64,000 nucleotides of DNA from Mycoplasmatota bacterium (GTDB taxonomy: Bacteria > Bacillota_I > Bacilli_A > Haloplasmatales > Haloplasmataceae): positions 2,651,684-2,715,683 of the forward strand of contig CP074573.1 of assembly GCA_018394295.1 (NCBI GenBank), written 5' to 3'. Made by a program: the position numbers and the translations under genes. Within the stretch, counting starts at the first letter, position 1. The number at the start of each line of letters is the position of its first letter. This document shows positions 7,976-61,794 of the stretch, piece by piece. The notes beneath the pieces are model-generated. The model did not search any database. It worked only from the letters and a program-made list of their open reading frames with translations, and had not been told where the DNA came from.

Positions 7976-8048
7976 TATTTATATTTTATATAAGAAGAGC
8001 CTGTCGTCTTTTTAATTTTTTTACAACTCCCCTTCAAAAAGTCAAAAA

Positions 8049-8079
8049 CCACTACTTATGATTTATCATAAATTAGTGG
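8049..8079 (-). terminator. rho-independent terminator after the FtsX-like permease gene
   Basis: Long imperfect palindrome ccactac ttatga..tcataa attagtgg followed by T-rich sequence on the minus strand. Confidence 0.5.
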
Positions 8080-14017: not shown

Positions 14018-14293
14018 TTACTTTTTAGTCTTATTAATATTTATAACATTAGACACAATTGTAATGCCACCAACAATTAAACACCCTATTCCAAATAAAT
14101 TTCGTTCTAACACTACTCCAATTGAACCGACAACAATAAGCCCAACACCTATACTATTTCCAATAACTGATCCAATGAAAGATACTTTCTTTGAAGGATG
14201 AATTAATTTTTCTACCGTGTCCATGGATTTACTCAAAGTATTTTGTGAAATATTTTTTGTTGCTTCAATTAGATTTTTATTGTATTTATTCAT
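14018..14293 (-). CDS. small hydrophobic/membrane protein (91 aa), hypothetical
   Basis: GGAGG RBS 8 nt upstream of the ATG. Gly/Ile-rich TM segments. Start codon 23 nt from the IS6-like left end. Confidence 0.35.
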   Translation of the reverse strand: MNKYNKNLIEATKNISQNTLSKSMDTVEKLIHPSKKVSFIGSVIGNSIGVGLIVVGSIGVVLERNLFGIGCLIVGGITIVSNVININKTKK

Positions 14294-14504
14294 ATTATCA
14301 CCTCCATATAGTAGTTGGTAGTGTAAAAGTTTTTCTTAAAACCAATACAAAACCTTATATATATATTATTTTTTATTATATAATGAGTTCCCCCCCTGTG
14401 TTTGGGAGGTTGCTCGTTATATTTTTTTAACCCTTTATATACAAAAAGATAGATACACCTGATATAATTTAATCACCACAAAAAAACTATAAGGAGTATC
14501 TATC

Positions 14505-14768
14505 ATGGTTAAAATTATATCAGTTCTTTCAGTATTTTTAAAGTATTTAAACAAACTACTTTATAAATTTATTCTTTTTCTAGATTCACACATTATTTCT
14601 ACACCTAGTTCTAAGTCATCTGGCACTTATTATGAACCTTTTAGGAAGTTCACTGTTGATGGTGAACCTATTATTCAGAAGGTTGAAAAGCTAGATTATC
14701 AAGAATTGCTTAATGTGTATTTTTTAAAGTACAATAAGCATCTCAAACCAGTTACTAGACGAATATAA
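14505..14768 (+). pseudogene. IS6-like transposase, N-terminal segment interrupted by IS21 insertion
   Basis: First 85 aa identical or near-identical to the intact-length copies at 55564 and 31229. The reading frame ends 2 codons after the IS21 junction. Confidence 0.8.
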
Positions 14769-14816: not shown

Positions 14817-15566
14817 TTAATTTTCTTCGATAAAGTAATTTTTAAGTCGATAAGATTTACCTGTAATGTTAACTACATGAGCATGATGAAGAACTCGATC
14901 AAGGATAGCGTTAGCTATTACAGGGTCTTTAAAAATATCATCCCAATTAGAAAAGTTAATGTTGGTTGTAATTATCGTACTTCGTTTTTCATATCGTCTA
15001 TCTATTAGCTGAAAGAACAATTTAGAATCTTCTTTGTCGATAGGTAAATAGCCTAGTTCATCAATAATCAATAATTTGTACTTGGTAAAATGCTTGAGTC
15101 TATCGTTTAAGCGATTTTCTAACTTAGCTTTCTTTAACTGGGCTATCAAATCATGACATTTTATAAAGTAAGTTGATATACGCTTCTTCGCAGCGGATAT
15201 ACCTATTGATGTAGATAAGTGGGTTTTACCAACACCACTCGTTCCCATAAAAACGATGTTCTCGCATTGATGGATGAATCGATGACTCTCAAAATCTAAT
15301 ATTTGTTCTTTGTTTATATTTTCTTGGAAAGAGAAGTCAAAATCCTTCAATTCTTTGTAATGGGGGAATGCCCCTACTTTAACCATAGCTTTGATCATAC
15401 TAGCCTCTTTATAATCAATTTCATATGTTGTTAATTTAATAAGCCCATCAACGAAAGATAGATTATTTTTATTAATAAAGTTAATAGTATCGTCTAAATG
15501 ATTTTTCATTTCTTTTAATTTTAAATATTCTAAATTTGCGATTAATTGCTCGTGTGCTGTTGTCAT
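14817..15566 (-). CDS. istB: IS21-family helper ATPase IstB
   Basis: GTSGVGKTHL Walker A, LLIIDELGYLP Walker B, RYEKRSTIITTN and ILDRVLHH motifs. Confidence 0.85.
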   Translation of the reverse strand: MTTAHEQLIANLEYLKLKEMKNHLDDTINFINKNNLSFVDGLIKLTTYEIDYKEASMIKAMVKVGAFPHYKELKDFDFSFQENINKEQILDFESHRFIHQCENIVFMGTSGVGKTHLSTSIGISAAKKRISTYFIKCHDLIAQLKKAKLENRLNDRLKHFTKYKLLIIDELGYLPIDKEDSKLFFQLIDRRYEKRSTIITTNINFSNWDDIFKDPVIANAILDRVLHHAHVVNITGKSYRLKNYFIEEN

Positions 15567-16866
15567 TATTTATAACGTTCTCCTATCTTATTAAGATTTT
15601 CTTTTGCGAATTTTTGAATATCTTCATCATCAAAAGATAGAGTCATTCTGGCAATCTGTATATAGTGCTCCTCTAAATAATTCAACTTTTTACTACTTAA
15701 CGAGTGTATTGTCACCAAATTTGTGTTAGAATATATGTGAATTTGATTATCATATACCTGCAGTTGAAGTGTACGGTTCATATATTTAGGTGGTACTGAA
15801 TATTGATTACCCTTATAACTAATCATTGATGATGAGTTTACTTTCGCTGTTATGGTTTTAATCAAGTATAGATTTCTTATCGTGTCTCGTGGAGGGGACT
15901 GTAAGAAATCTTTTTCATTTTGTAGGCCAAATAGTGGAATCATATCATAAGCTCTATGTAACCTACTGTTTTCTCTGTTGTTTATTTCTTGTACCTTTTT
16001 CACTAATTGTTCATAATTTAAATCACCACTATATGCTTTTAATTCATCTAAAATTTTCATAGGGGATTCAACCTTTGCTTTTGTATTTGGTCTGCCTGCG
16101 ATACAGGGTTTAACTTCAAATCCATAATCATTAGCGAATTGTTGAAATTTATTATTTACTTTTCCTTTTGAATATTCAGTTCTTGGTACATCCATTACTG
16201 TTTTCATATTATCAGTTAGTATTTCATGAGGTACACCACCAAATGCTTGAAATGCTTCGTCTATGAAGTTAAACAGTATGTCTTGAGATTTAGTTAATGA
16301 TAATCTATAAACTCTAAACCTTGAGTAACTCAGTAATAAAACGAATATATTGATTGTGATGACTTCTCCTGTATCAAGCACGAAATTCATTGATTCTTTC
16401 CAATCTAGCTGTGCTTGTTGACCTTTATCTGTTTCATAACGTATAACTGAAGGTGCTTTGATAGCACTTTTTTCTTTTGATCAAAGTACTCTTGAAATTC
16501 TGGTGTTTTACTTATATATCGCCTAAATGATGATTCAGCACATTTTAGTCCATAATTATCACTAAGATACTGCCAAAGCACTTTTTTATATTCAAAAACT
16601 TTTATTTTATCATTGAGTAAATCTTTAATTAAGTAGTAATAATCATCTACTATACTTGATCGTTTTCTATTTTTAGACTTCTCATAACCATTAATGTACT
16701 TACTTATCGTTCTTCTATCAACATTTAACTCTCTTGCTAATCGACTTTTATTTACCTTTAAGTTTGTTGTTTCCATTAAATTCTTTAATACCTTCAAATC
16801 ATTTAATTTCTGTATTTCTATATTAGTATCTATTTCATAGTTTAGTATCATAAGTTGTCCTCCCAT
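15566..16866 (-). pseudogene. istA: IS21-family transposase IstA with a single frameshift
   Basis: N-terminal HTH part (16405-16866) and DDE catalytic part (15566-16390) lie in different frames. The frameshift maps to an A/T homopolymer run near 16470-16480. Confidence 0.65.
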
Positions 16867-16952
16867 TGATTAACTATGAAATTATACTATATTAACTGTA
16901 CATTTTAAAGTGATCACTTCTGTACATATCTATCTTATCATTTATAGACGAA

Positions 16953-18121
16953 GGCCATCAAAACTTGATTTCAAAGGAAATTGCCCTATTTGTGGTGCTC
17001 CTCATGATTACATCTATGAAAATAATATTAAATCAAAACAGTTACTTTGTAAGGTATGTAGTCATACATTTACCTTGAATAATGATTTTCTTGAAAAGAT
17101 TATTTTAAAATGTCCTCATTGTTCAAAGAACCTTGAAAGAATTAAAGACCGTAATAGTTATATTATTTATAAATGTAGACATAAGAAATGTTCCTTTTAT
17201 TTAGATAAATTAAAGAAATTAACACCAGATCAATTAAAACAATTCAAAAAGAAACCAGGTAAATTTAAACTTCATTATATCTATCGTGCTTTCGATATTA
17301 ACTTTGATTCCCTAGAACGTGACTCTATGTCTAATTTAAATATGAAGGTTGATTTAGCCAATATCAGACATTCTAAGCATACTCTAGGCTTAATCTTAAC
17401 GTATTACGTTAACTACGGTTTGTCGAGTAGGAAAACTGCAGCTATCATGTATGATATTCACCAAGTTAAGATTTCCCATCAAACCGTGATGAATTATGCA
17501 AATAGTGTTTCTACAATGATTCGTCCCTTACTTGAAAATTACCCATATGATTTATCATCTGACCTTTGTGGGGATGAAACATATGTTAGGGTTAAGGGGA
17601 AGAAGCATTATATCTTCTTCTTCTCAGATAAAATTAAAAAGATTATTACTTCTTATCAAGTTTTTAGTAAACGTGATACTTTTTCAGCAGTCGTTTCACT
17701 ATATCAAACATTCAAAAAATACACTGAACTACCTAAGAATTTGAAAGTAGTTGTGGATGGTAATCCTATTTACAACGTTGCATGGTCATACTTTAAAAGC
17801 ATGAACATAAATTTCGATTTATTTCAAGTTATAGGACTCACTAATAACACGAAAACAGACAAGGATTACCGTCCATTTAAACAAGTAACTGAGCGTTTAA
17901 ATAGAACTTTCAAAGACGATTATATCCAAATGAACGGATTTGGTAATATCAAGAGCGCTAATGCTTATATGGTCTTGTTTACAACGTTTTTTAACTTTCT
18001 AAGACCACATAAATCGTTAGGTTATAACCCACCTGTTAAATTAGAAGAGTTTGAGGATTTACCTCATATGCCAAGCAAATGGCTTTCTCTAATAGATATG
18101 AGTTACTCTTATATAAACTAA
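16953..18121 (+). pseudogene. IS6-like transposase, C-terminal segment (resumes after IS21)
   Basis: Continues ...PSKLDFKGNCPICGAP (Zn-finger CxxC x2, CPHC) and the DDE region DETYVRVKGKKHY / VDGNPIY / RPHKSLGYNPP. Confidence 0.8.
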
Positions 18122-19627: not shown

Positions 19628-20716
19628 TTAAGAAGATTTTGTTTCTTCTTTTTCCAAAATTGATGATTTTTCTGGGTTTAACCAAACAATGTTTTCCACA
19701 CTCCAATTTCTTATGTTTCTCGACCATCTTTCTGGGTGTTTAAGTTGTGCTTGTTCATAGACTTTAATTCGCTTTTTTAATATTTTATTAGATAAACCGG
19801 AATGCCTTTGGTGTGGAGTTAAATATTTTATCCCACTATGAAGATGTTCATAGTTATACCAGTTTATAAACTGTAATGTCCAAGTTCTTGCTTGTTTAAT
19901 AGTCTCAAAGCCCTTATCTGGGTAACCTGGACAATATTTGAATGTTTTAAATATAGACTCCGCATAAGGGTTATCATTACTTACTCTAGGTCTACTATTT
20001 GATGGAGTAATACCTAGTTGATAAAGGGTCTCTAAAAGAGTGGCTCCTTTCATCGGACTTCCATTGTCAGAATGAAGCACTAAAGGTTTTTTATGTAAAA
20101 GTATATTTTCTGCTAATACTGCTCTTTTAACTAATTCACTAGCGTGTTGAGCAGATTGTTCAGACCATATTTCCCATCCTACTACTTTTCTACTAAATAA
20201 ATCTAGGATCAAATATAAATAATAATATATCCCTTTTATTGGTCCTTTTAGATAAGTAATATCCCACATCCATACTTGATTAGGACCTGTGGCATAATGT
20301 GTTGATATAGGTCTATTTTGGGGTTTTTTAGTATTTCCTCTATGTTTTAGTTGTTTTTCTTCTCTTAAGATTCTATATATTGTTGATTCAGATGCTAAAT
20401 ATATTCCTTTATCAGCTAGGAGCGGCACAATTTCATTAGGAGATAAGTTTTTATATTCAGGCTGATTTACCACTTTTAAAATTTCTTCTCGTTCTTTTTT
20501 AGTTAATCTATTTTTGGGTACTTTTTTTTTACTAATAGGTCTTTGATCTTCATTTGGTGATGAATCACTTCTCCATCGTTGAAGTGTTCGTAAACTAATT
20601 CCTATTTCTTCACATGCTTTTTCTTGTCTTGCTCCATTATCTACAGCTTCTCTTATCAGTGATATTGCTTTTTTGCGATCTGTGGCACTGATTAATCTTC
20701 CTCGTCTTCCCCCCAA
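19628..20716 (-). CDS. IS3-family transposase OrfB (integrase core, DDE)
   Basis: rve-domain motifs (WMWDITY, HSDNGSPM, ES..TFK, YNYEHLHSGIKYLTP). Confidence 0.8.
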   Translation of the reverse strand: MGGRRGRLISATDRKKAISLIREAVDNGARQEKACEEIGISLRTLQRWRSDSSPNEDQRPISKKKVPKNRLTKKEREEILKVVNQPEYKNLSPNEIVPLLADKGIYLASESTIYRILREEKQLKHRGNTKKPQNRPISTHYATGPNQVWMWDITYLKGPIKGIYYYLYLILDLFSRKVVGWEIWSEQSAQHASELVKRAVLAENILLHKKPLVLHSDNGSPMKGATLLETLYQLGITPSNSRPRVSNDNPYAESIFKTFKYCPGYPDKGFETIKQARTWTLQFINWYNYEHLHSGIKYLTPHQRHSGLSNKILKKRIKVYEQAQLKHPERWSRNIRNWSVENIVWLNPEKSSILEKEETKSS

Positions 20717-29627: not shown

Positions 29628-31418
29628 GGTAGTGTCAAATAAATTATGAAAACTCATAATAACTCTATGACCCAAAATAAAAAAAACTGGAATTGTAGTA
29701 TGTTAGATTACAATACTCAGTTTTATCTTACTATATCATTATATGCAAATAAAAAAGGCATATTTAAATACGCTTATATAGAGATACTCCTTAGTTAAAA
29801 ATTAGTTTATATAAGAGTAACTCATATCTATTAGAGAAAGCCATTTGCTTGGCATATGGGGTAAATCCTCAAACTCTTCTAATTTAACAGGTGGGTTATA
29901 ACCTAACGATTTATGTGGTCTTAGGAAGTTAAAAAACGTTGTAAATAAGACCATATAAGTGTTAGCACTCTTGATGTTACCAAAGCCGTTCATTTGGATA
30001 TAATCGTCTTTGAAAGTTCTATTTAACCGCTCAGTTACTTGTTTAAATGGACGATAATCCTTGTCTGTTTCCGTGTTATTAGTGAGTCCTATAACTTGAA
30101 ATAAATCGAAATTTATGTTCATGCTTTTAAAGTATGATCATGCAGCGTTGTAAATAGGGTTACCATCCACAACTATTTTCAAATTCTTAGGTAGTTCAGT
30201 GTATTTTTTGAATGTTTGATATAGTGAAACAACTGCAGAAAAAGTATCACGTTTACTAAAAACTTGATAAGAAGTAATAATCTTTTTAATTTTATCTGAG
30301 AAGAAGAAGATATAATGCTTCTTCCCCTTAACCCTAACATATGTTTCATCCCCACAAAGGTCAGATGATAAATCATATGGGTAATTTTCAAGTAAGGGAC
30401 GAATCATTGTAGAAACACTATTTGCATAATTCATCACGGTTTGATGGGAAATCTTAACTTGGTGAATATCATACATGATAGCTGCAGTTTTCCTACTCGA
30501 CAAACCGTAGTTAACGTAATACGTTAAGATTAAGCCTAGAGTATGCTTAGAGTGTCTGATATTGGCTAAATCAACCTTCATATTTAAATTAGACATAGAG
30601 TCACGTTCTAGTGAATCAAAGTTAATATCGAAAGCACGATAGATATAATGAAGTTTAAATTTACCTGGTTTTTTTTTATATTGTTTTAATTGATCAAATG
30701 ATAATTTCTTTAATTTATCTAAATAAAAGGAACATTTCTTATGTCTGCATTTATAAATAATATAACTATTACGGTCTTTAATTCTTTCAAGGTTCTTTGA
30801 ACAATGAGGACATTTTAAAATAATCTTTTCAAGAAAATCATTATTCAAGGTAAATGTATGACTACATACCTTACAAAGTAATTGTTTTGATTTAATATTA
30901 TTTTCATAGATATATTTATGAGGAGCACCACAAATAGGGCAATTTCCTTTAAAATCAAGTTTTGATGGATTTCTTCTAGAAACAGGTTTTAATTGCTTAT
31001 TGTGCTTTAAAAAATACTCATTAAGCAATTCTTGATAATCTAGCTTTTCAATCTTTTGAATAATAGGTTCACCATCAACAGTGAACTTCCTAAAAGGTTC
31101 ATAATAAGTGCCAGATGACTTAGAACTAGGTGTAGAAATAATGTAGGAATCTAGAAAAAGAATAAATTTATAAAGTAGTTTGTTTAAAGACTTTAAAAAT
31201 ACTGAAAGAACTGATATAATTTTAACCATGATAGATACCCCCTGTATGGTTGGTTGTGGTGACTTAATTATATCAGGGGTATCTATCTTTTTGTATATAA
31301 AGGGTTAAAAAAATATAACGAGAAACCTCCCAAACACAGGGGGGGAACTCATTATATAATAAAAAATAATATATATATAAGGTTTTGTATAGGGTTTAAG
31401 AAAAACTTTTACACTGCC
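29628..31418 (-). mobile_element. IS6/IS26-like insertion sequence copy B (inverted relative to copy A)
   Basis: IRs GGCAGTGTAAAAG / GGTAGTGTCAAAT. Perfect 8-bp TSD TATAAAAA (29620-29627 and 31419-31426). ~1.79 kb. Confidence 0.8.
29802..31229 (-). pseudogene. IS6-like transposase with internal nonsense mutation (TGG to TGA at the ...NPIYNAAW codon)
   Basis: Two ORFs (30138-31229 and 29802-30122) in the same frame, separated by a single stop where the other copies encode Trp. Confidence 0.75.
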
Positions 31419-31441
31419 TATAAAAATAAGGGAGTGGGATA

Positions 31442-49963: not shown

Positions 49964-50212
49964 ATTTATATCTTTATTTCCCTTCATAAACCACAGACAC
50001 TACAACCTCTACATGCCTTGTTTTGGGTGTAGGTACACGCTAGTTGTTACTCGTTTGTTGATCTTTCAATATACTCTAATTCTAAATCTAAATAATAGGC
50101 AAAATACACGAACAACTGAGTTGCATTTTGTTTATGCTATCCTAATTCTGAGCTATCTTCAATAATTTTTAAATACTGGTTATTCATTATAACCGTTCTC
50201 CTTCTGGTACAT

Positions 50213-51274
50213 TTATAATTGATTAACTACATTAAGAAGCATAAATCGAACACCTTTACTTTTATATGAAAAATCATTAAAGCATCCAATGATATATGTA
50301 TCTTTTTCCTGGTGATAAAACATAAACGCACCTGTTGCCCCTGCAGCCCCCCAGGAATTGAATTTTTTAGGCATCAACAAAGGCACGGTTGTAAACTTCC
50401 AAATTCCGTATCCATAATCAATTCCTAGTCCAAATCTAGCACAATTATTCTTCATTTCTTCAAGGGTATTTTTTGTCACTATTTGATAGTTCACCAAAGC
50501 TTTCATGAATTTGAGTAAGTCTTCATAAGTAGCCACTACTCCTCCACCGGTATAGTCAAGACCGGCATACCCTTTAATATCATTTAATCTGGTTTCACGT
50601 ATAAAAAAATCGGCAGTAGGAAACTGGGATTTTTCCATTGGCTCTGAATAGTGATTCATATATGAGTGCCTCATATCAAGAGGTTCAAAAATATAATTTT
50701 TTAATGTAGCATGAAATGGTTCACCGGTGATACTTTCGATTATCAAACCTAGTAATTGATAATTTGTATCTGTATATTTGAATCCTTTACCCGGAGGAAA
50801 ATGAGGTCTTGTATTATTTTTTACCCAGACAACTGCTTCTCTGGGCGTTATATTTAGATTCTGATCCTTAATAAGTTCATCTAAGAGAGTCCAAAAATTA
50901 TCAGCTAAACCCGATGTTTGATTTAGCAGATGTTTGATCCTGATTTCATCAGTATAGTCCTTCCCCTTGTATAAATGTAGGTTATTCAATAACTCATGAT
51001 CTAAGTATTTAGTGATTTTATCATCAAAAGACAACTTTTTCTTTTCTACTAATATGCCGATAATTGCTGAAGTAAACAATTTACCCACACTAGCCATATA
51101 GATTGGCTGCTGCGGGTTGGCAGGCATATTACCCGTTGACCCTTCTGCAATATTTATGTGAATGCCTTCTTTTTCCGAATGAACTAATAAATAAGCGTTC
51201 TTTATTTTACTATCTTTTTGCACTTGTTTTCTAAACGTGTTTTCTATTGATTTTTGTAAATTGTTTGTTTTCAT
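50213..51274 (-). CDS. beta-lactamase-family serine hydrolase (class C-like / PBP4*-like), cytoplasmic or secreted
   Basis: SVGK (S-x-x-K: MASVGKLF), YTDTNY (YxN), HLLNQTSGL. Confidence 0.75.
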   Translation of the reverse strand: MKTNNLQKSIENTFRKQVQKDSKIKNAYLLVHSEKEGIHINIAEGSTGNMPANPQQPIYMASVGKLFTSAIIGILVEKKKLSFDDKITKYLDHELLNNLHLYKGKDYTDEIRIKHLLNQTSGLADNFWTLLDELIKDQNLNITPREAVVWVKNNTRPHFPPGKGFKYTDTNYQLLGLIIESITGEPFHATLKNYIFEPLDMRHSYMNHYSEPMEKSQFPTADFFIRETRLNDIKGYAGLDYTGGGVVATYEDLLKFMKALVNYQIVTKNTLEEMKNNCARFGLGIDYGYGIWKFTTVPLLMPKKFNSWGAAGATGAFMFYHQEKDTYIIGCFNDFSYKSKGVRFMLLNVVNQL

Positions 51275-51386
51275 TCTTTTATCTCCTCTCTACATAGAAA
51301 ATTCTTGTTTTACTACTAGACATAACTTTATAAGATGCATTATGTCAAAATCTGCTTAACTGAGATTCTAAACCACATTTTTTGCT

Positions 51387-52090
51387 CTAGGAAAAACCAT
51401 TCCAAAGCAGGGGGTCACAACTGATCCTAGAGCAACCATAAGAAGTACCAAGGCAAGGAGCCAACCTAACACGGGTACCATGGTCAATACTCCCACAAGT
51501 AGCACTCCCAACGCTAAAGCTTTGAAGCCAGGGGGTAGGTGTCCTGGTCGCTGAATCTCTTCTGAAATTCCGGGTAGAGGTACTACCCCTTAAGCAGTTT
51601 TTCATACAACACATTAGCATCACATGTTGCAATAAAGTAATCGGCTTCAAAAGATTTACTGTTACTCAAGGTTACTCTCCTCACTGAATCTCCTTCGATT
51701 TCCAGCTCCACTGCCTCACAGGAAATCTCAATATTTCCGCCCAGGGCAAGATACTTTTCTTTCATCCGCCTGGCCAGAGCCCTTGAGCCCCCTAAGGGAA
51801 TAGAAGATTGGCGTCCGGTAAAAGTTCCGAGCGAACAAATTATCGATACAGCACTGTAATCACTTTCAGTCAAGGGCTCCTACAGCATTCCACAATTCCC
51901 GGATGGGGGTTCCTTCTTTTGTCCCTACCAGCCAGTGAATGCAACCATCAATATGATATCCCTGACGATCCCAGCCAGTACATTCTCCACCTAAAGAATG
52001 GTGCTTCTCCAAAATAATGCTTTCAAAACCATTTTTTTTGACAAACATACCTGCGCTTAATCCAGCGATTCCTCCACCGATAATATCAAT
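51387..52090 (-). pseudogene. FAD-dependent oxidoreductase (CrtI/phytoene-desaturase-like) fragment with multiple frameshifts, located in a GC-rich foreign segment
   Basis: N-terminal dinucleotide-binding motif IIGGGIAGLSAG is out of frame with the ATG. Three overlapping ORF pieces. Only ~230 codons are present out of the ~490 expected for this family. Local GC ~48% vs ~27% genome. Confidence 0.55.
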
Positions 52091-52096
52091 TTATCA

Positions 52097-52672
52097 TTAC
52101 AAATTCTCCTTTCGTTTCATTTGTTGTGCTAGCATTACGTCATCTCCCACTTCCATAAGCAACTGGTCGAACTCTTGATTATCGAGCCACGAAGGCATAT
52201 GGCCGTTGGCCACCATGACTGAGAGTCCCATCTGAAAGACCCGCAATTTCAGAAACAATCGTTTACGTTCCTTAAGAGTCCAGCCTCGCATAGCTTCATC
52301 CTCAGCCATTGCCTCAAACATGGCATTCTCTATTGTTTCATAAGAAGTCATATATGGATTAGGCTGTATTGACAATTCCCGAAACAACACCGGGTACTCC
52401 TTAGCAAAAGCCAAGCTGGCTTTCCCAATCTTTTCAAACATACTTTGCCCTTTTTGCTTTGCAAACAATTCCTCCGATATAGCAAATACCTGCTGTACTA
52501 CAGCCTCTACTAAGTCATCAACAGTAGCAAAATTAACATAGATTGGAGCGACCGAACAGTTAAGCCTATTCGCTACACTTCGAGCAGTGATTCCAGAAAA
52601 GCCCTTTTCTTTAGCGACCTCCAAAGCGGCATCCAAAATAGTGTTTTTATCAAATTTTGTTTTTGGTGGCAT
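52097..52672 (-). CDS. TetR-family transcriptional regulator (GC-rich, likely horizontally acquired)
   Basis: HTH ILDAALEVAKEKGFSGITARSVANRLNCSVAPIYVNFATVDDL. GC-rich codon usage unlike neighbours. Confidence 0.8.
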   Translation of the reverse strand: MPPKTKFDKNTILDAALEVAKEKGFSGITARSVANRLNCSVAPIYVNFATVDDLVEAVVQQVFAISEELFAKQKGQSMFEKIGKASLAFAKEYPVLFRELSIQPNPYMTSYETIENAMFEAMAEDEAMRGWTLKERKRLFLKLRVFQMGLSVMVANGHMPSWLDNQEFDQLLMEVGDDVMLAQQMKRKENL

Positions 52673-53164
52673 ATTAACATCTCCTTACACCGTGTTATAT
52701 TACTTAAGTTATATAATATGGTGTAAGGAGATGTTAGTCAAGTGTAATTTGGAATTTAACTTGATATTTTTAAAGGAATATCAGAAGTGGTAAGCATAAA
52801 TATTATCTAAAACTATAAAGAAATGCTTCCAAACTTCCGATTAGTTATTATTTATATGTAACCAGCAGACGTCTATTAATAATAATTGTTAGACGAAGTC
52901 TTACCATACCTCAAATCAAAAAAGATATTATGAAGTAAAATTCATAATATCCCTTGTATTTTACGTTATATCAAAACCGCCTTACTTATGGTACGGTTCA
53001 CCGTATCATAAATAAATGAGGTTTTTATCAATTTAATTTTTATTACTATCTACTTAGATTCCTATTCTGAATCCGAAAAATATGATTCACTTTTACTATC
53101 AAAATAATTCTTTATCAAATTTTAGTCCTTTATGATTTAACACATAGTTAGTTAACAGAAATTG

Positions 53165-54181
53165 TTACAACAGCTTAATACTCGGGTTGCTAAAGTTTGC
53201 CCATGCTATATTATTGTCAATAGATCTAACCATTCTGTAAGCTATTGGCTTAAATCCACACTTAGGCCAAAAGGTTGAAGCAGAAAGGTTGCTTATTTTC
53301 CAATCTGCTATTATGCTATTATATCCCTTTTCCTTCATAATCCTGTAGCCTTCATTCATTAACTTTTTACCAACACCTCTTCCACTTTGGGAATAGTAAG
53401 TGCCCGCAATATTTAGCTCTACTCCATCATCAGGTGCCATCAAATCTGGAGTAATAGGATCATATATATGAAATCCTAATTCCTTCTTATCCTTTTCCGC
53501 AATAAGAATCGTTGAATCATTATCCTCTACTGAACTTTTATACCCAACGTTTATTTTCATTACAAGTTCAGGTATTACAGGTAAAAAAGTAGGTGCTGAA
53601 TTTAGAGATGAGAAGATTATGCTGGACATATTACCCATTCTTTCACTATCATTTTTGTTAGCAAATCTAATCTCTGCATCAGATAAATTTTCAAAAGGCT
53701 TGTAATCCTCCATATTCATTATCCCATATACATGATCAATAGAAAAGCTTAATCGTAGGAAGGCTTCATAGTACACCTGATTTCCAAGAGGTATAAATGT
53801 ATGATGGCTGAAGCAGCCTTGTTCAAGCCATACAACAGAAACCTTTGCATAAAGCTCCCTTATAAGCTCAGAGGATTGATCCATTCTGATTGCTATTCCC
53901 TCATAGGGCACCCATACATGTCTACCTCTACCCCTTAAATTGTCAATTTTTATATCACCAATTATATAACCTACTAGTTCATCATTAGCAAAAGCTCCTA
54001 TTCCAATCACTTTGCTATTAACAATCAAATTTTCAAGTAAATTAGTGATATATTTTGCATTAAGACAACTGTTCTTCAGGGATGGAAACCCCTTACTTTC
54101 AAGGTTTTGCCTGCATATTAACAACTCAGACATTGCAGGTATATCCTCAATAGTAATTGTTCTGAATTCACATTTGTTCAT
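53165..54181 (-). CDS. GNAT-family acetyltransferase (338 aa, possibly tandem GNAT folds)
   Basis: C-terminal motif RGVGKKLMNEGY. N-terminal second acyl-CoA N-acyltransferase-like region. Confidence 0.6.
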   Translation of the reverse strand: MNKCEFRTITIEDIPAMSELLICRQNLESKGFPSLKNSCLNAKYITNLLENLIVNSKVIGIGAFANDELVGYIIGDIKIDNLRGRGRHVWVPYEGIAIRMDQSSELIRELYAKVSVVWLEQGCFSHHTFIPLGNQVYYEAFLRLSFSIDHVYGIMNMEDYKPFENLSDAEIRFANKNDSERMGNMSSIIFSSLNSAPTFLPVIPELVMKINVGYKSSVEDNDSTILIAEKDKKELGFHIYDPITPDLMAPDDGVELNIAGTYYSQSGRGVGKKLMNEGYRIMKEKGYNSIIADWKISNLSASTFWPKCGFKPIAYRMVRSIDNNIAWANFSNPSIKLL

Positions 54182-54386: not shown

Positions 54387-55355
54387 TTATATCTCTAACA
54401 TCAATTTACCCATTATGCTCCAATCATATATGCCCGTTACTTGAACTGCTTTCTTTCCATTATGAGTTTTAAAAGATAGCTTAATAGGAAATGACATCAA
54501 TAGAAATTCATGATTACCTAATGGTATTAGTTTTATATTTTTAAAGAAAAAAACCTCACAGTATATATTCTCTTTGGATTCATCTAATTTAATTTTTAGC
54601 TCATGCTGCCTATCATCAATTGTAACAGAATATCTTCCACAATATTGTTGCAGAAATTCAGGTACTATCACCTTTTCATAATTATACTCTAACCCCAAAT
54701 ATTCCATTAAATCCTTCATATATTTTTCCCATAATTCATTTGAGGTGTTTATCTTAATTTTATTACCTTGGTAACGCCTGAACATAGTATCGGCAATTTC
54801 TTGGTAATTTTCCCACATATTATAAACACTATCATCGCCTTTATATTCATGCTCATTAAAATAGCCTTCTCCTTCTGCATTGAGAATAATATTTTTCCAT
54901 CTTTCTCCACGAACTTCAAATGCCGTTCTAAAGGAATCTCTTAATTCTGAACGATATAAAAATACTATAGTTGGATTAAGTTTTGAGATTATTTCCATAA
55001 CTGTATCATAAAACTTAGTTATTTTTTCTATTGAATAATTACAGTTAAAGAAATAACGTATTATATTCTGATATAGACATCCTTCCATTATAAATACATC
55101 ATCAGATTTCTCTATGTCGTCAGCTAATTTTCCCCATAAACTGTACATATATGAAACATTTTTATCCATATCTTCTTCAGAATCTATACTTGCAATACTA
55201 AACTCTTTGTCTCGTATAGGATGAGCTTTAATTTCTTCATGTAACCATCGATGTTTAATCCCATTTTGTTCATATTGATATGCTAACTTCTGTGAAGTAG
55301 TAGATTTACCAGCTCCACTTATCCCTGTGACAATAATTAATTTAGAATCTTTCAT
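54387..55355 (-). CDS. P-loop NTPase/kinase-like protein (322 aa), hypothetical
   Basis: Walker A GISGAGKST. Start codon 22 nt from the IS6-like copy C left end. Confidence 0.5.
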   Translation of the reverse strand: MKDSKLIIVTGISGAGKSTTSQKLAYQYEQNGIKHRWLHEEIKAHPIRDKEFSIASIDSEEDMDKNVSYMYSLWGKLADDIEKSDDVFIMEGCLYQNIIRYFFNCNYSIEKITKFYDTVMEIISKLNPTIVFLYRSELRDSFRTAFEVRGERWKNIILNAEGEGYFNEHEYKGDDSVYNMWENYQEIADTMFRRYQGNKIKINTSNELWEKYMKDLMEYLGLEYNYEKVIVPEFLQQYCGRYSVTIDDRQHELKIKLDESKENIYCEVFFFKNIKLIPLGNHEFLLMSFPIKLSFKTHNGKKAVQVTGIYDWSIMGKLMLEI

Positions 55356-55377
55356 ATCTTCTCCCCCATTAGATTTT

Positions 55378-56664
55378 TGGTAGTGTAAAAGTTTTTCTTA
55401 AAACCAATACAAAACCTTATATATATTTTGTTTTTATTCTATAATGAGAATCCCCCCCTGTATTTTGGAGGAGCTCGTTATATTTTTTTATCATATAAAT
55501 ACAAAAAGATAGATACCCCTGATATAATTAAGTCACCACAACCAACCATACAGGGGGTATCTATCATGGTTAAAATTATATCAGTTCTTTCAGTATTTTT
55601 AAAGTATTTAAACAAACTACTTTATAAATTTATTCTTTTTCTAGATTCGCACATTATTTCTACACATAGTTCTAAGTCATCTGGCACTTATTATGAACCT
55701 TTTAGGAAGTTCACTGTTGATGGTGAACCTATTATTCAGAAGGTTGAAAAGCTAGATTATCAAGAATTGTTTAATGTGTATTTTTTAAAGTACAATAAGC
55801 AATTAAAACCTGTTTCTAGAAGAAATCCATCAAAACTTGATTTCAAAGGAAATTGCCCTATTTGTGGTGCTCCTCATGATTACATATATGAAAATAATAT
55901 TAAATCAAAACAGTTACTTTGTAAGGTATGTAGTCATACATTTACCTTGAATAATGATTTTCTTGAAAAGATTATTTTAAAATGTCCTCATTGTTCAAAG
56001 AACCTTGAAAGAATTAAAGACCGTAATAGTTATATTATTTATAAATGTAGACATAAGAATTGTTCCTTCTATTTAGATAAATTAAAGAAATTAACACCAG
56101 ATCAATTAAAACAATTCAAAAAGAAACCAGGTAAATTTAAACTTCATTATATTTATCGTGCTTTCGATATTTACTTTGATTCCCTAGAACGTGACTCTAT
56201 ATCAAATTTAAATATGAAGGTTGATTTAGCCAATATCAGACATTCTAAGCATACTCTAGGCTTAATCTTAACGTATTACGTTAACTACGGTTTGTCGAGT
56301 AGGAAAACTGCAGCTATCATGTATGATATTCACCAAGTTAAGATTTCCCATCAAACCGTGATGAATTATGCAAAGAGTGTTTCTACAATGATTCGTCCCT
56401 TACTTGAAAATTACCCATATGATTTATCATCTGACCTTTGTGGGGATGAAACATATGTTAGGGTTAAGGGGAAGAAGCATTATATCTTCTTCTCAGATAA
56501 AATTAAAAAGATTATTACTTCTTATCAAGTTTTTAGTAAACGTGATACTTTTTCTGCAGTTGTTTCACTATATCAAACATTCAAAAAATACACTGAACTA
56601 CCTAAGAATTTGAAAGTAGTTGTGGATGGTAATCCTATTTACAACGCTGCATGGTCATACTTAT
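55378..56664 (+). mobile_element. IS6/IS26-like insertion sequence copy C, truncated at the right end
   Basis: Left IR GGTAGTGTAAAAG and left arm conserved. Similarity to the other copies stops at ~56664, inside the transposase gene. No right IR or TSD. Confidence 0.75.
55564..56664 (+). pseudogene. IS6-like transposase, 3'-truncated (ends after ...NPIYNAAWSY then unrelated sequence)
   Basis: Near-identical to copies A and B up to the truncation point. The annotated ORF 55428-56708 runs into flanking DNA. Confidence 0.75.
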
Positions 56665-57249: not shown

Positions 57250-57607
57250 CTATTTATCTTCCTTCCACCATTAAATAAGTTTATACTTAAGTTCCATGTG
57301 TATTTTTTATTATCGTCAAACCAGCACTTTCTCCTCTAATAATATTATATACTGCAACTTCAAAATATTCAATATTATACCATTACTTCGCTTATATGTT
57401 AGCAAAACAAGTTTTGTTCACATTTTGTTAACATTCTTCTGTGAGTGTTGTGTCCAATATTTCGATAATGATGCCAATCTTTGTCCTTGCTCTAATTCTA
57501 ATACCAAACGAGCTAAGTTAATAATTGAAAAATATAAAGAAGTTACTCCTAGGAATGGTATATACTCAAAAGAAAAGTTCTATGAAGAGTTTATGAATAT
57601 GACGTAA

Positions 57608-57665
57608 AAAACCACGACAAATTGTCGTGGTTTTTATTGGTGGAGGCGAATCGAACTAAGCGAAA
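57608..57665. repeat. ~55-bp repeat R1 (hairpin CCACGAC..GTCGTGG + TTTT + TGGTGGAGGCGAA(T/C)CG(A/C)AC), copy downstream of the alkylsulfatase gene
   Basis: Shares ~45 conserved positions with 59841-59900. The hairpin, flanked by A-run and T-run, acts as a bidirectional intrinsic terminator. Confidence 0.6.
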
Positions 57666-57721
57666 TCCACCATATTTTTTTTATGATATGGTTCTCTATT
57701 TAGCTCAATTGCTGTTTTTTA

Positions 57722-59683
57722 TTATTTTTCATAATTTTTTTTCTTTGATACAGGTGTCATTATATTGAAATCCAAATCTATTTTGTCTTGCACCCATAGA
57801 AACAACTGCCACTTGCAAATATCTCCTTCTACTATTATTGCTGAACTATCTGGTCTGTTATTAGTTGTTGCTAGCTCATACAATGTATCTTTTGACATTG
57901 TAACTGTTACAGCTGCATCATCAGCAAGTTTATTGTTTAAATATCTAAATATTCCTCGTCTAATTTCAGTCGAGGCTACTTCTTTTTTATCAGGAATAAC
58001 AAAATTAATTTTATAATCAAAATCTCCAGCTTTCAATCCATCTATTCTTATACTAAACAAATACAATACATTCTCAAGTGGTAGCGTATTTAAAACCTCC
58101 TCAGTTATAAGAGAACGGTTAATTAAGATAATTCCTTGGCGTAATTCTTGTGCTCCCATTAAATATTCATTTCTCCATGGACCTGATTCTGCTATATATC
58201 CTAATTGCTCTAAAGCATCTGCACAAAGCAGTTTTGCATCTTTATTATTGGGATTAGCGTATATAACTTGTTTAGTAACCTCTGCTACCCATTGATATTC
58301 ACCCTTTTCAAAGGATTTCTTAGCCTTTTCTAAAACAGAATTCTCTCCACCCATGTATTCTATATATTTTTTTGCCGATTCCTCTGGGAGTAATTTGTTT
58401 AAATCTACAGGGTTTCCATTGTACCATCCAATATATTTTTGATAAACAGCTTTTGAGTTATGACTTACAGTTCCATAGAATGAACTATCATACCACTCAT
58501 CGCTTAAACTTTCAGGAAGTTTAACCATTCTGCCAACTTCATCTATTGTATATCCTTTATTTATCAATCTTAAAGTTTGATCGTTTATATATTGATATAA
58601 ATCCCTTTGTTTCTCCATGTAATCTATGCAGTATTCATTGCCAAATCTTGGCCAGTTGTGAACTTCAAATATTGATGTTAAATCATTCCCCCATAAGTCT
58701 ATAGCTTTTTGTATATCCTTAGCCCATGCAACTGGATCTCTAACTTCTGCCCCTCTTAAAGTATATATATTATGAAGTGTTGCAGTACAGTTTTCTGCTA
58801 TACACAAAGATTTTTCACTTGGAATATATATATCCATTTCTGCAGGAGCCTCAGTATCTTCTGTTAATAGAAACTGCATAATTAATCCATCAATTTCTTT
58901 TTCTACATACTTCTCATTTGCAATCTGAGATATTTCATAAACATTATCTGTAAAGGTTACTGTTCCTGAAGAAACATACTTACCAATACCACAGTCTATT
59001 TGACCTTTTTTATCACGTGGTAATACTTCACCATACATATACAAGCCTCTGCGAGTCATTGCAACTCCTGCATTTACATTTTCTTCTATGACTGCATCAG
59101 TAAAGCCTTTTGGCGCATATACCTTAATATTTTTTTCTGCACTACTATTTAATACTCCTAATATTCCTCCATAATGATCTACGTGGGAATGAGAACATAT
59201 TACAGCACTAATTGGTATGTCTCCAAAATATTCATTAACTAACTTTATTGCAGCTTCTGCTGTTTCTTGTGAAGTTAAACAATCTATTATAATCCAGCCT
59301 GTATTTCCTCTAACAAAACTCATATTTGCTAGATCAAAACCTCTAACCTGATATATTTTTTCTGTAACCTTAAATATACCAGAAATTAGATTCAACTTCC
59401 CTTGTTCCCAAAGTTTCGGATTAACAGTATAGGGGATTTTATCCTTTAATAAAAAATTATACCTTTCTAAATCCCATACAGGCATTAAAGCTCCTTCTAT
59501 ATATATTACAGGGAGTGGTACATCAACAACCACATTCTTTTTCGCTAATTTTTCTTCAATTTCCAATCTACCCCAGTGAATATTCTTATATATTTCTTCA
59601 TTTATTAACTTTGTTTTAAGGGTAGCATTTTTTCTTCTACCATTTAGTTCTTCGGTATTATTTTTTTTCTCTTTACAATTCAA
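57722..59683 (-). CDS. MBL-fold alkyl/aryl-sulfatase (SdsA1/BDS1-like) with C-terminal SCP2-like domain
   Basis: Metallo-beta-lactamase motif HSHVDHYGG. 653 aa, a length typical of type III alkylsulfatases. Confidence 0.75.
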   Translation of the reverse strand: MNCKEKKNNTEELNGRRKNATLKTKLINEEIYKNIHWGRLEIEEKLAKKNVVVDVPLPVIYIEGALMPVWDLERYNFLLKDKIPYTVNPKLWEQGKLNLISGIFKVTEKIYQVRGFDLANMSFVRGNTGWIIIDCLTSQETAEAAIKLVNEYFGDIPISAVICSHSHVDHYGGILGVLNSSAEKNIKVYAPKGFTDAVIEENVNAGVAMTRRGLYMYGEVLPRDKKGQIDCGIGKYVSSGTVTFTDNVYEISQIANEKYVEKEIDGLIMQFLLTEDTEAPAEMDIYIPSEKSLCIAENCTATLHNIYTLRGAEVRDPVAWAKDIQKAIDLWGNDLTSIFEVHNWPRFGNEYCIDYMEKQRDLYQYINDQTLRLINKGYTIDEVGRMVKLPESLSDEWYDSSFYGTVSHNSKAVYQKYIGWYNGNPVDLNKLLPEESAKKYIEYMGGENSVLEKAKKSFEKGEYQWVAEVTKQVIYANPNNKDAKLLCADALEQLGYIAESGPWRNEYLMGAQELRQGIILINRSLITEEVLNTLPLENVLYLFSIRIDGLKAGDFDYKINFVIPDKKEVASTEIRRGIFRYLNNKLADDAAVTVTMSKDTLYELATTNNRPDSSAIIVEGDICKWQLFLWVQDKIDLDFNIMTPVSKKKNYEK

Positions 59684-59840
59684 AGTAACACCTCCAATAT
59701 TACACTACACTTTAATTTATTCAGACTATCCGTTAAGTGTGATGTATAACAACATAAAGTAGTAAATCTACATGGATAAATATTTATCTTATATCTACTT
59801 AATGATACTTGCTACTTGTATTTATTCAAAAAAACAATAA

Positions 59841-59900
59841 AAAAACCACGACATCAAGTCGTGGTTTTCAATGGTGGAGGCGAACCGCACCTTGCTACCA
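59841..59900. repeat. ~55-bp repeat R1, copy upstream of the alkylsulfatase gene
   Basis: AAAAAACCACGACATCAAGTCGTGGTTTTCAATGGTGGAGGCGAACCGCAC, a direct repeat of 57608-57665. Confidence 0.6.
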
Positions 59901-60420
59901 TTATGTCACCCAAACTTAATAAACTCATCTCTTATTTATGATATATTTACTCTATCATCATCAAAATTTAAAAATTTCCTCAATTCTTAACTACTTTAAT
60001 CACGGCATTTTAACTTCCTATTAATAGACATAACTGAACAATTATCTAAAACTGATAATTTTACCTATTAATTGATTTCTTCAAAATAACAATTCATTAT
60101 AGTATTCTACAAACTTCTAACTATACCTTTTAAATATCAGTAAATATTCCAATATATTTATATTTTATCATCAATATATAAAATAAACATTAATTTACTA
60201 ATATACAATTTACAATACACAAAAAGACCATGAATTTTTAAGCTATAATAGCTCTCTTCATAGTCTTTCTCTACTTTATATTAAATTTGAAATAACATAT
60301 CCCCTTATACCCTATCAAATACCAACTCTTACTTTAACACCATTAATTTGCTCTTTATTCTTAAAATCATCACCTTTTGAGCTAAAGTTAAAAAGCTGGT
60401 AAAGTGCGCGAATTCAACGT

Positions 60421-61794
60421 TTACAAGGTATCTTTGCGTTGTATTCCTATTACACATTCCACATGCATCGTATGTGGGAACATATCAACTGGTTGTACCT
60501 CAATAATCTTATAATTATTTTCATTTAATATCTTTAAATCTCTTGCTAAGGTTGCTGGGTCACATGATACATAAACTATTCTTGGTATTTCCATTTCAAT
60601 TATAGTCTCTAGTAGTTTCTTATCGCACCCTTTTCTTGGTGGGTCTACAACAATCACATCTGGTTTAATGTTATCCTCTTGCCAGTTTTTTATGATTTCT
60701 TCTGCCTTACCTGCTTCATAATGGGCATTAGTGAAATTATTTAACTTCGCATTTAATTTCGCATTTTCAATCGCATCTGGTATGATTTCTACCCCGTATA
60801 TCGCTTTCGCTTGTTTCGATAAATATAGTCCAATTGTTCCAATTCCACAATAAGCATCTATTATATATTCATTTCCTGTTAGATTAGCATATTCTAAGAC
60901 TTTATCATATAACTTTTTAGTTTGAACTGGATTTACTTGATAAAATGAACGTGATGATATCGCAAACTTCACATCCCCTATATAATCATAAATATAAGGT
61001 TTTCCATAAAGAACAACAGTTTTTTCTCCCATAATGGTATTTGTCTTACTTTTATTAATATTTTGAATAATTGATTTAATTAGAGGAAATTTTGTGATTA
61101 AGTCATTAATAACCTCTTCTTTATTTTTTAGATTCTCTTCCTTTGTTACTAAGGTAACCATATATTCATCTGTTATATATCCTTTTCTTACAATCACATG
61201 GCGTAGAATCCCGCTATGTGATTCTTCATTATAAGGAGTAATATTATACCTTTTAGAAATAACCTTCATATAATTAATGATTTCATCCGTTACTTTATCT
61301 TGAATATCACAACTTGTCATATCGATAATCTCATGGGTGTTTTCTTTATAAAATCCCGCTACAACATTACCATTACTTAAACCAAATGGTACTTGTGTCT
61401 TATTACGATACTTCCAACTATCATCCATTCCTATACAATCATGGACATTAATATCAATTTTCCCAATTCGCTTTAAAGTCTCTTGAACCATATCTTTTTT
61501 TATAGTTAATTGCCCATTATAAGAAAGATGTTGAATACTACATCCACCACACTGATTATATATTGGGCAATTTGGCTCTACTCTGTCCTCACTTTTTTTA
61601 TACATTTGCAATACTTTACCAATCGCAAAATTCTTTTTTATCGCAATGATTTTGACAGATATCGATTCCCCGGGTAATGAATTTTTGATAAATATCGGAA
61701 AATTATTAACTTTTGCGACACCTAATCCTTGATGTGTCATTCCTGTTATTTCAACATCATATAGTCTATTCTTTTCTACTGGCCTACTAGTCAT
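60421..61794 (-). CDS. rlmD: 23S rRNA (uracil-C5)-methyltransferase RlmD/RumA family (TRAM + 4Fe-4S + SAM-MTase)
   Basis: N-terminal TRAM domain, Cys cluster CPIYNQCGGCSIQH, class I MTase motif DAYCGIGTIG and catalytic DPPRKGC. Confidence 0.85.
   Translation of the reverse strand: MTSRPVEKNRLYDVEITGMTHQGLGVAKVNNFPIFIKNSLPGESISVKIIAIKKNFAIGKVLQMYKKSEDRVEPNCPIYNQCGGCSIQHLSYNGQLTIKKDMVQETLKRIGKIDINVHDCIGMDDSWKYRNKTQVPFGLSNGNVVAGFYKENTHEIIDMTSCDIQDKVTDEIINYMKVISKRYNITPYNEESHSGILRHVIVRKGYITDEYMVTLVTKEENLKNKEEVINDLITKFPLIKSIIQNINKSKTNTIMGEKTVVLYGKPYIYDYIGDVKFAISSRSFYQVNPVQTKKLYDKVLEYANLTGNEYIIDAYCGIGTIGLYLSKQAKAIYGVEIIPDAIENAKLNAKLNNFTNAHYEAGKAEEIIKNWQEDNIKPDVIVVDPPRKGCDKKLLETIIEMEIPRIVYVSCDPATLARDLKILNENNYKIIEVQPVDMFPHTMHVECVIGIQRKDTL

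Follow-up and report, generated by a model that had tools for sequence, protein, structure and literature searches.

An alkylsulfatase gene in the genome of a Mycoplasmatota bacterium (family Haloplasmataceae) is bracketed by two direct copies, here named W1 and W2, of a short element whose core matches the 3′ terminus of Bacillota transfer-messenger RNA (tmRNA) genes. The stretch analysed, hereafter the window, comprises 64,000 nucleotides (nt) of contig CP074573.1 (assembly GCA_018394295.1, positions 2,651,684 to 2,715,683 of the forward strand); positions are those of the window unless a locus number is given, and the gene and both copies read on the minus strand. We consider it probable that W1 and W2 are the attachment (att)-type repeats of a cassette that targets the tmRNA gene ssrA, carries no integrase of its own, in the manner of a cis-mobilizable element (CIME), and lies here away from ssrA. 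Each copy would represent an att-like element of ~70-85 nt, composed of a 5′ arm, a 13-nt core resembling the Bacillota tmRNA 3′ terminus and a predicted intrinsic terminator, and sites of this kind would remain as direct repeats where elements integrate at ssrA. The unit of 2.2 kb enclosed by the cores would bring its own promoter and leader along with the alkylsulfatase gene and, since it holds no recombinase, is best likened to a cis-mobilizable-element-like cassette.

If this is so, an odd “tRNA-like” repeat becomes a readable record of gene flow, in which an alkylsulfatase gene with its own promoter and terminator crossed bacterial phyla as a 2.2-kb unit, the ends of which lie inside a tmRNA-derived element resembling a recombination site. 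Units of this kind would escape island finders that depend on an integrase or on an intact tRNA or tmRNA gene. A first-pass annotation, made from the letters of the window, had already singled out the repeats and attributed them to a tRNA gene: the feature is real and the kind of process was rightly recognised, while the RNA gene was the wrong one.

The repeat pair and the sulfatase gene

A single direct-repeat family surrounds the sulfatase gene, with copies at 57606-57656 and 59840-59890 (51 nt, 84% identical, 2234 nt apart). In the 64-kb window there are exactly two occurrences each of the 19-mer TGGTGGAGGCGAATCGAAC (allowing <=3 mismatches) and of the hairpin AAAACCACGACN5GTCGTGGTTTT, and in the shuffled window there are none, so that the direct repeats with a terminator hairpin reported in the first-pass annotation are borne out. 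Judged by structure, each copy extends ~15-20 nt past the ends assigned to it at that stage. Both carry the core TTCGCCTCCACCA on the minus strand, and their minus-strand 5′ arms (AUGGUGGA in W1, AAUGGUAG in W2) pair with the core part UCCACCAU; the minus-strand folds of the two copies are stabler than those of shuffled sequences, with z from -2.3 to -3.7. The hairpin stems of W1 and W2 are identical and the loops differ (AAATT vs ATCAA on the plus strand), and the 5′ arm of W2 is of a different family subtype (ATGGTAG..CAAGNTGCGG), which is also seen in locus L008.

In both copies a GC-rich hairpin stands directly before a U-run, which is the geometry of an intrinsic terminator, and termination is predicted at each. 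A terminator scan detected the one in W2 (12 pairs, tail TTATTGTTTT) and missed the one in W1, which has a 7-bp GC-rich stem lengthened by A-U pairs and followed by U6; the U-run was probably counted into the stem. The terminator of W2 would stop transcription arriving from the side of rlmD, the neighbouring 23S rRNA methyltransferase gene, and that of W1 would stop the sulfatase mRNA. With an A-run on its other side, the W1 hairpin could also serve a convergent plus-strand open reading frame (ORF) ending at 57607.

The sulfatase ORF comprises 653 aa and has a TTG start with a GGAGGTG ribosome-binding site (RBS) upstream; its Pfam matches are Alkyl_sulf_dimr (3e-57), Alkyl_sulf_C (4e-23) and Lactamase_B (2e-16). 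The stretch upstream of it (59684-60420), which contains no ORF of >=45 aa, had been remarked upon as unusually long and non-coding. This is partly accounted for, as 157 nt correspond to a promoter and 5′ untranslated region (UTR) conserved with a clostridial locus and ~65 nt to W2, but ~500 nt remain unmatched and are possibly a decayed remnant.

The leader also contains an inverted repeat, TACATCACACTT .. AAGTGTAGTGTA (59701-59747, minus strand), just upstream of the RBS. It is conserved in Clostridium sediminicola (L026:5938-5985), where it folds with a z of -3.2, compared to a weak +0.3 in the window, and may be a translational or operator element.

The source of the core

In the first-pass annotation the repeat was described as containing the reverse complement of a tRNA 3′ end (T-loop, acceptor strand and CCA) that does not fold into a complete tRNA. 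The latter statement is correct: ARAGORN reported no tRNA and no tmRNA in the whole 64-kb window, and Rfam gave nothing at gathering score. At E<=10 over 57300-60600 only unrelated sub-threshold Rfam matches appeared, mostly reflecting the terminator hairpin; the covariance-model searches thus returned neither a tRNA nor a tmRNA model match for this region. As to the former statement, the 3′ terminus of a tRNA-like gene, CCA included, is indeed present, but it is that of ssrA.

Judged by its sequence, the source of the core is the tmRNA gene ssrA and not a canonical tRNA gene. The core matches in 12 of 13 positions CTCGCCTCCACCA, the end of the Rfam-confirmed ssrA genes of C. sediminicola (locus L026, 4926-5280, 172.6 bits) and Paenibacillus kobensis (locus L007, 112.6 bits), neither of which is the host's own ssrA. 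As in these two genes, ..TCGCCTCCACCA of the core forms an acceptor 3′ strand that pairs with 5′-GGGGGCG (with a G3:U pair), followed by the discriminator A and CCA. The core is read as a tmRNA terminus because the P. kobensis ssrA ends in CTCGCCTCCACCA and is followed by a terminator homologous to that of the element, with which it shares the loop CCGCATGAGG and the tail TTTTTGCnnTGCT. A copy of the element itself lies 2.5 kb downstream of this ssrA on the same strand, and no integrase is found among the three ORFs in between. The element 5′ arm and the tmRNA T-arm are equal in length (15 nt), with weak sequence similarity.

The T-loop part of the earlier claim did not hold. On the minus strand W1 reads ...GGUGGAUUUCGCUUAGUUCGAUUCGCCUCCACCA and then the terminator; after the T-loop-like GUUCGAUU only 11 nt are left to the CCA end, where a tRNA requires 16. 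A canonical tRNA end consists of T-loop, 5-nt T-stem strand, 7-nt acceptor strand, discriminator and CCA, and with 11 nt after GTTCGATT the 5 nt of the T-stem would be missing. Moreover, the T-loop-like string GTTCGATTC occurs only in W1, where it falls in a segment that is variable in the family, and is absent from W2 and from the other family members. The proposal that an integrative element inserted into a nearby canonical tRNA gene and left the gene's 3′ end duplicated as the two repeats can draw on the CCA end and on GTTCGATTC in W1; set against the missing tRNA gene and tRNA model match, the short spacing and an acceptor strand whose G3:U pair and discriminator A fit a tmRNA, it is already refuted as stated and retains next to no probability. 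A mimicry of tRNA-Cys, as the Paenibacillus copies might suggest (GGCGAAU...UUGCA...GUUCGCC-U-CCA), was also considered and dropped, the clostridial and window copies having neither the 5′ strand nor the GCA.

As no intact tRNA or tmRNA gene lies within the 64 kb, a simple “island in a tRNA gene” does not describe the locus. Nor is the W1/W2 site located at ssrA, since the window has no tmRNA gene and relatives of the rlmD region have no ssrA upstream. A position downstream of an intact ssrA in the same orientation is occupied instead by the C. sediminicola module and the P. kobensis element.

Clostridial relatives and the junction pattern

In protein searches the best relatives of the sulfatase were found in C. 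sediminicola (87%), Tepidibacter (84%) and Alkaliphilus (83% and 81%), whereas the best non-self relatives of the native RlmD belong to Mycoplasmatota/Haloplasmataceae (<=79%); the sulfatase gene is therefore foreign to its host. At the DNA level, it is 86% identical to that of C. sediminicola. In this species (L026) the order is rnr, an aminotransferase gene, smpB, ssrA, a remnant of ~440 nt, element, sulfatase, element and an NlpC/P60 gene; ssrA ends in CTCGCCTCCACCA with a terminator following, and both element copies flanking the sulfatase are degenerate. The orthologues in Tepidibacter, Alkaliphilus, L034 and L036 are located in unrelated gene contexts. The best explanation of these comparisons would be that the unit arose in clostridia, in an array directly behind smpB-ssrA.

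The unit shared with C. sediminicola (L026 5787-8001) begins at the core of the upstream copy and stops in the 5′ arm of the downstream copy. The core and terminator of W2 are 78% identical to the clostridial upstream copy and have the same TTGAT loop; the 5′ arm of W2, at 52%, is at noise level. For W1 the halves are reversed: its 5′ flank and arm are 65% identical to the clostridial downstream copy, with a clear block GAGAACCATATCATAAA..GTGGATTT, and its core and terminator, at 58%, are at noise level. The outer halves, i.e. the W2 5′ arm and the W1 terminator, are not donor-like in the Mycoplasmatota genome. Recombination could have taken place within the core of a single site, the partner being a circle that held the cassette together with one hybrid site (W1 arm, core and W2 terminator); the single, resident site would have consisted of the W2 arm, the core and the W1 terminator. 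The observed pattern of shared and unshared arms fits the one expected from such a circle, although the site-specific mechanism, the position of the crossover in the core, the resident site and a recombinase acting in trans are all presumed in this scheme. The crossover may have occurred in this genome or, equally, in a donor from which a larger fragment of the array was later imported. The earlier suggestion that the gene was acquired by insertion or recombination at the repeats is supported insofar as the gene is foreign and the arms fit recombination inside the repeat, but the source of the site is not a canonical tRNA gene.

Flanking repeats are not a general feature of the sulfatase orthologues, as those in L028, L034 and L036 have none. 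In an Alkaliphilus-type contig (L033) the orthologue (81% aa) stands between the copies of another 51-nt direct repeat at 5792-5842 and 8006-8056 (84% identical, 2214-nt spacing), nearly the same geometry as that of the window pair. The L033 repeat takes the form of a long terminator-like hairpin (AAAACCGCAGTTAC..GTAACGGCGGTTTT) around GGCGAACCGTACC. At ~5830-5900, L031 has an upstream copy of hybrid make-up, in which the right half is that of the L033-type repeat and the left half differs. Downstream of the Alkaliphilus hydrothermalis sulfatase (L031:7990-8089) the contig ends in a sequence starting GTGCGCCAAGCAAAGGGCGCACC that resembles the 5′ end of a group II intron, which may be the reason for the break in the assembly.

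Related elements in other genomes

A single scan of species-representative genomes with the pattern GGTTTTNNNTGGTGGAGGCGAA returned 21 loci, fifteen of which share one architecture; they come from Clostridium, Oceanirhabdus, Paenibacillus, Desulfosporosinus, metagenome-assembled Bacillota genomes and one Burkholderiaceae genome. Read on the strand corresponding to the window minus strand, this architecture consists of GTGGNTTT, exactly 15 variable nt, TTCGCCTCCACCA, 3 nt, and a hairpin between an A-run and a U-run; the 15-nt gap from GTGGN to TTCGCC is constant across the copies that share it, and nhmmer E values for family members range from 1e-7 to 1e-14. The A-run is present although the search pattern did not include it, and the terminator therefore reads on the strand matching the window minus strand.

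In 12 of 18 copies the pattern end is preceded, at a distance of 50-157 nt, by the end of an ORF on the same strand, which places that ORF just before the element. These ORFs represent unrelated accessory genes: a MATE pump, a response regulator, a RelE/ParE toxin, an Mrr-like nuclease, esterases, an acyltransferase, an AbiC-like protein and a Dam methylase. Further, more diverged copies on the same strand were found 1-3 kb away in L006, L008, L011, L015 and L016, so that the elements cluster locally and are not scattered.

Some Paenibacillus elements, designated “type ii” (L006:6440-6580, L006:5340-5480 and L008:7830-7990), keep the ~65-nt 5′ part of the ssrA-type element (CCACCTCTCCAAACA..CATCAC..GGCGAATTGTGGTTTTGCACAGCCACGGTTC) and have a different, structured 3′ half (GGTTC-loop-GAACC and CTTGTCC..AAAACCACAAT..GGACAGG) with no Rfam match. 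Each is located directly after an ORF, one of them AbiC-like.

Two large serine recombinases were encountered near relatives of the element or of its cargo. A 6-kb IMG/VR contig (L022) carries a Paenibacillus-type element at its end (5790-5875) along with a gene for a large serine recombinase of 526 aa (627-2207), and in Anaeromicrobium the sulfatase orthologue is followed, 2.3 kb downstream, by a large serine recombinase gene (L036:10201-11715). Either enzyme is a candidate for acting on sites of this type.

Weighing of the explanations

A number of observations weigh against the view of W1 and W2 as sites of an ssrA-targeting cassette. The identity with ssrA extends over no more than 12-13 nt, degenerate copies (TTCGTCTCCACTA, TCGTATCTACCAA) are what C. 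sediminicola has, and ssrA itself is missing both from the window, by ARAGORN and Rfam, and upstream in the rlmD relatives. No empty site was found: the nearest available relatives (76-79% RlmD identity) have neither element nor sulfatase downstream of rlmD and are too distant to serve as an empty-site control. The sulfatase is the only gene between W1 and W2, with no integrase inside the segment; no tyrosine or serine recombinase (Phage_integrase, Resolvase, Recombinase) was found in the Pfam-scanned window ORFs, which include most ORFs of >=170 aa, and none stands beside the arrays in L007, L006, L016 and L026. The family is rare, with 1-2 exact pattern matches per representative genome and two copies in the 64 kb of the window. 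A metagenome contig scan with the arm and core pattern gave only two high-GC chance matches, and the viral contig scan gave only L022, which has a large serine recombinase and no ssrA; likewise, when the element was compared with phages and the whole module with plasmids by BLAST, the matches were due to chance or to coding regions, and no attP-bearing phage or plasmid was identified. The repeat flanking the Alkaliphilus orthologue is not the W1/W2 element. Finally, the junctions would look the same after a Campbell insertion mediated by RecA at a repeated terminator.

Several of these points would sit well with a repeated intergenic terminator family, comparable to repetitive extragenic palindromes (REP) or miniature inverted-repeat transposable elements (MITE), in which general homologous recombination moved the sulfatase gene or a local duplication copied the terminator, and the match with ssrA is incidental or due to a shared terminator module. 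Both window copies are good predicted intrinsic terminators, family members stand directly after ORFs as terminators do, no recombinase was seen in the scanned ORFs or beside the arrays, the Alkaliphilus orthologue is flanked by another hairpin repeat, and the Paenibacillus copies have two alternative 3′ halves. A REP- or MITE-like family would be recognised by many dispersed copies per genome; against it, the 64-kb window shows two copies and representative genomes have one or two exact matches each, and the diverged copies are locally clustered. The invariant 13-nt core, moreover, lies outside the terminator hairpin and matches the tmRNA terminus, two independent loci place the array directly behind ssrA, and the shared unit ends inside the element and not at its edges. 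On balance we regard an ordinary terminator family as unlikely.

The element might also act as an RNA on the minus strand, either as a 3′-UTR module or as a terminator/antiterminator switch, in which case W2 would attenuate transcription into the sulfatase gene; the 5′ arm GUGGAUUU has two alternative pairing partners, UCCAC in the core and AAAACCAC in the terminator. Such alternative pairings are present and are extended in L015, L020, L010 and L006, the minus-strand folds are stable as stated above, and stems are conserved with variable loops, although the search pattern fixed one side of each helix. No Rfam family matches, however, most copies follow genes instead of preceding them, the segment between arm and core is not conserved and forms no consistent helix, and the junction pattern and the adjacency to ssrA would be left unexplained. 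A function as RNA thus appears distinctly improbable, and a reading as riboswitch or attenuator in particular is unsupported by gene position.

Comparison with described systems

Integration at tRNA and tmRNA genes, including ssrA, where a displaced 3′ gene fragment forms the distal direct repeat marking the end of the island, is well established (PMC4383910). The ssrA cassette proposed here resembles Islander/TIGER-type islands in its direct repeat with the ssrA 3′ terminus including CCA, in the foreign enclosed DNA and in the position of the C. sediminicola module directly behind an intact ssrA. It differs in that the window has neither an intact ssrA in 64 kb nor an integrase, in that the unit is a single gene of 2 kb, and in that W1 and W2 share only 12-13 nt with ssrA, the rest being a conserved arm unrelated to it.

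The closest described case is that of the Dehalococcoides islands, which are arranged in tandem downstream of ssrA and are each bounded by a 20-bp repeat that copies the 3′ end of ssrA (McMurdie et al. 2011, PMC3146451). A conserved 15-bp motif not derived from ssrA lies just upstream of each of these repeats, and some units have no integration module (PMC3146451). The islands are typically much larger, usually carry a DsiB serine recombinase module and have their crossover in the T-loop (PMC3146451). Tandem units behind ssrA, short ssrA-end repeats, an upstream non-ssrA motif and units without an integration module are features in common; the phylum and the repeat are different, and the window has no identified recombinase and has its copy away from ssrA.

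CIMEs, as known from the Streptococcus systems of integrative and conjugative elements (ICE) and integrative and mobilizable elements (IME), are integrase-less units that retain attL and attR and arise by decay and accretion (PMC5704250). The window unit is similar in that two att-like copies are kept with no recombination or transfer genes between them. CIMEs are defined against a known parental ICE and its integrase, whereas none is known for W1 and W2, whose att function is putative. Compared to the known ssrA islands and CIMEs, what is distinctive here is the single self-expressing gene with no recombinase in sight, the copy off ssrA in a phylum other than that of its relatives, and a site family that extends from Clostridia to Paenibacillus and tends towards arrays of 1-3-kb units.

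In outline there is also a likeness to integron cassettes and their attC sites: arrays of short, mostly single-gene units in the same orientation, each followed by a structured imperfect-palindrome site inside which a circular intermediate would insert by recombination. However, there is no IntI and there are no R''/R' boxes (RYYYAAC/GTTRRRY), GTTCGAT being a misfit to GTTRRRY; the crossover would lie mid-site, and the W1/W2 cassette brings its own promoter and predicted terminator. It is not an integron cassette.

A wider hypothesis, which we put forward as rather unlikely, is that Bacillota and, by transfer, Mycoplasmatota possess an integron-like platform for gene capture. In such a platform the ssrA 3′ end would be the primary site and the ~80-nt element (conserved 5′ arm, 13-nt ssrA core and terminator) the cassette site; self-expressing accessory or defence cassettes of 1-3 genes would accumulate in the same orientation, a recombinase encoded elsewhere would exchange them as circles, and copies away from ssrA, like those in the window, would be secondary landing pads. 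An active cassette system of this kind would provide a gene-capture mechanism in a group from which integrons are not known, and GTGGNTTT-N15-TTCGCCTCCACCA followed by a terminator would serve as a sequence tag for spotting recently acquired genes.

Surroundings in the window

The features discussed are collected in Table 1.

Table 1. Coordinates of the repeat copies, the sulfatase unit and their neighbours in the window
Feature	Position	Strand	Basis or remark
Truncated insertion sequence (IS) copy (DDE_Tnp_IS240-like + Zn ribbon) beyond W1	55351..56662	+	cuts disrupted minus-strand gene 57249-56635
Element copy W1, downstream of sulfatase: 5′ arm (GGTGGATTT + 15 nt), core, terminator	57606..57675	-	nhmmer E=2e-12
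W1 predicted terminator hairpin (CCACGAC/GTCGTGG, U-run)	57608..57635	-	repeat search, folding
W1 core TTCGCCTCCACCA, ssrA 3′-terminus-like (acceptor 3′ strand + A + CCA)	57638..57650	-	12/13 identical to L026 and L007 ssrA ends
Unit colinear with L026 5787-8001: W2 core + right arm, leader, sulfatase, 3′ flank, W1 5′ arm	57675..59890	-	85.9% over 2228 nt
Alkyl/aryl sulfatase gene, metallo-beta-lactamase fold, cassette cargo	57722..59683	-	Pfam; Clostridia relatives 81-87% aa
Sulfatase promoter + 5′ UTR, within block common to C. sediminicola	59684..59840	-	alignment; hairpin 59701-59747 beside RBS
Element copy W2, upstream of sulfatase: other-subtype 5′ arm (ATGGTAG..CAAGGTGCGG), core, terminator	59840..59903	-	nhmmer E=2e-10
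W2 predicted terminator hairpin, loop TTGAT as in C. sediminicola copy	59841..59869	-	pattern match, terminator scan
W2 core TTCGCCTCCACCA	59872..59884	-	pattern match
AT-rich spacer of ~500 nt between rlmD and W2	59904..60420	.	no ORF, no Rfam match, no similarity to donor-type locus
Native 23S rRNA methyltransferase gene rlmD, flank of insertion region	60421..61794	-	Pfam, protein search

Relatives vary downstream of rlmD. One of them, with 76% RlmD identity, carries a type I restriction-modification system, helix-turn-helix regulators and a VapE-like gene there (L023:11728-21392), and because of this other cargo the lineage appears to have a hot spot of repeated insertion on the 3′ side of rlmD. 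The region from ~46 to 60.4 kb looks variable compared to a relative in which GNAT, APH and beta-lactamase genes are located within 1 kb after rlmD. Within this region, positions 50000-54000 have a G+C content of 0.35-0.37, against 0.25-0.31 elsewhere, and contain a beta-lactamase-family gene, a 96-aa amine-oxidase fragment, a TetR regulator and a GNAT-domain protein; this block is probably another imported segment of the variable region.

Beyond W1, two short minus-strand ORFs of 61 and 126 aa (57249-57064 and 57015-56635) have no Pfam match and look like one disrupted gene, cut by the IS at 56662; a protein search with them returned only the source genome's own hypothetical protein KHQ81_12670. 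The IS family concerned, with a DDE_Tnp_IS240-like transposase and a zinc ribbon, is represented by at least 3-4 copies or fragments that are 91-98% identical, at 16910-18121 (+), 30130-31427 (-), 55351-56662 (+) and 14289-14763. An IS21-type pair, formed by an IstB-like ATPase gene and a shortened rve/Mu-transposase-C ORF, is present at 14817-16390 (-), and a separate rve-family (IS3/IS481-like) transposase gene at 19628-20716 (-), so that the window as a whole is rich in IS.

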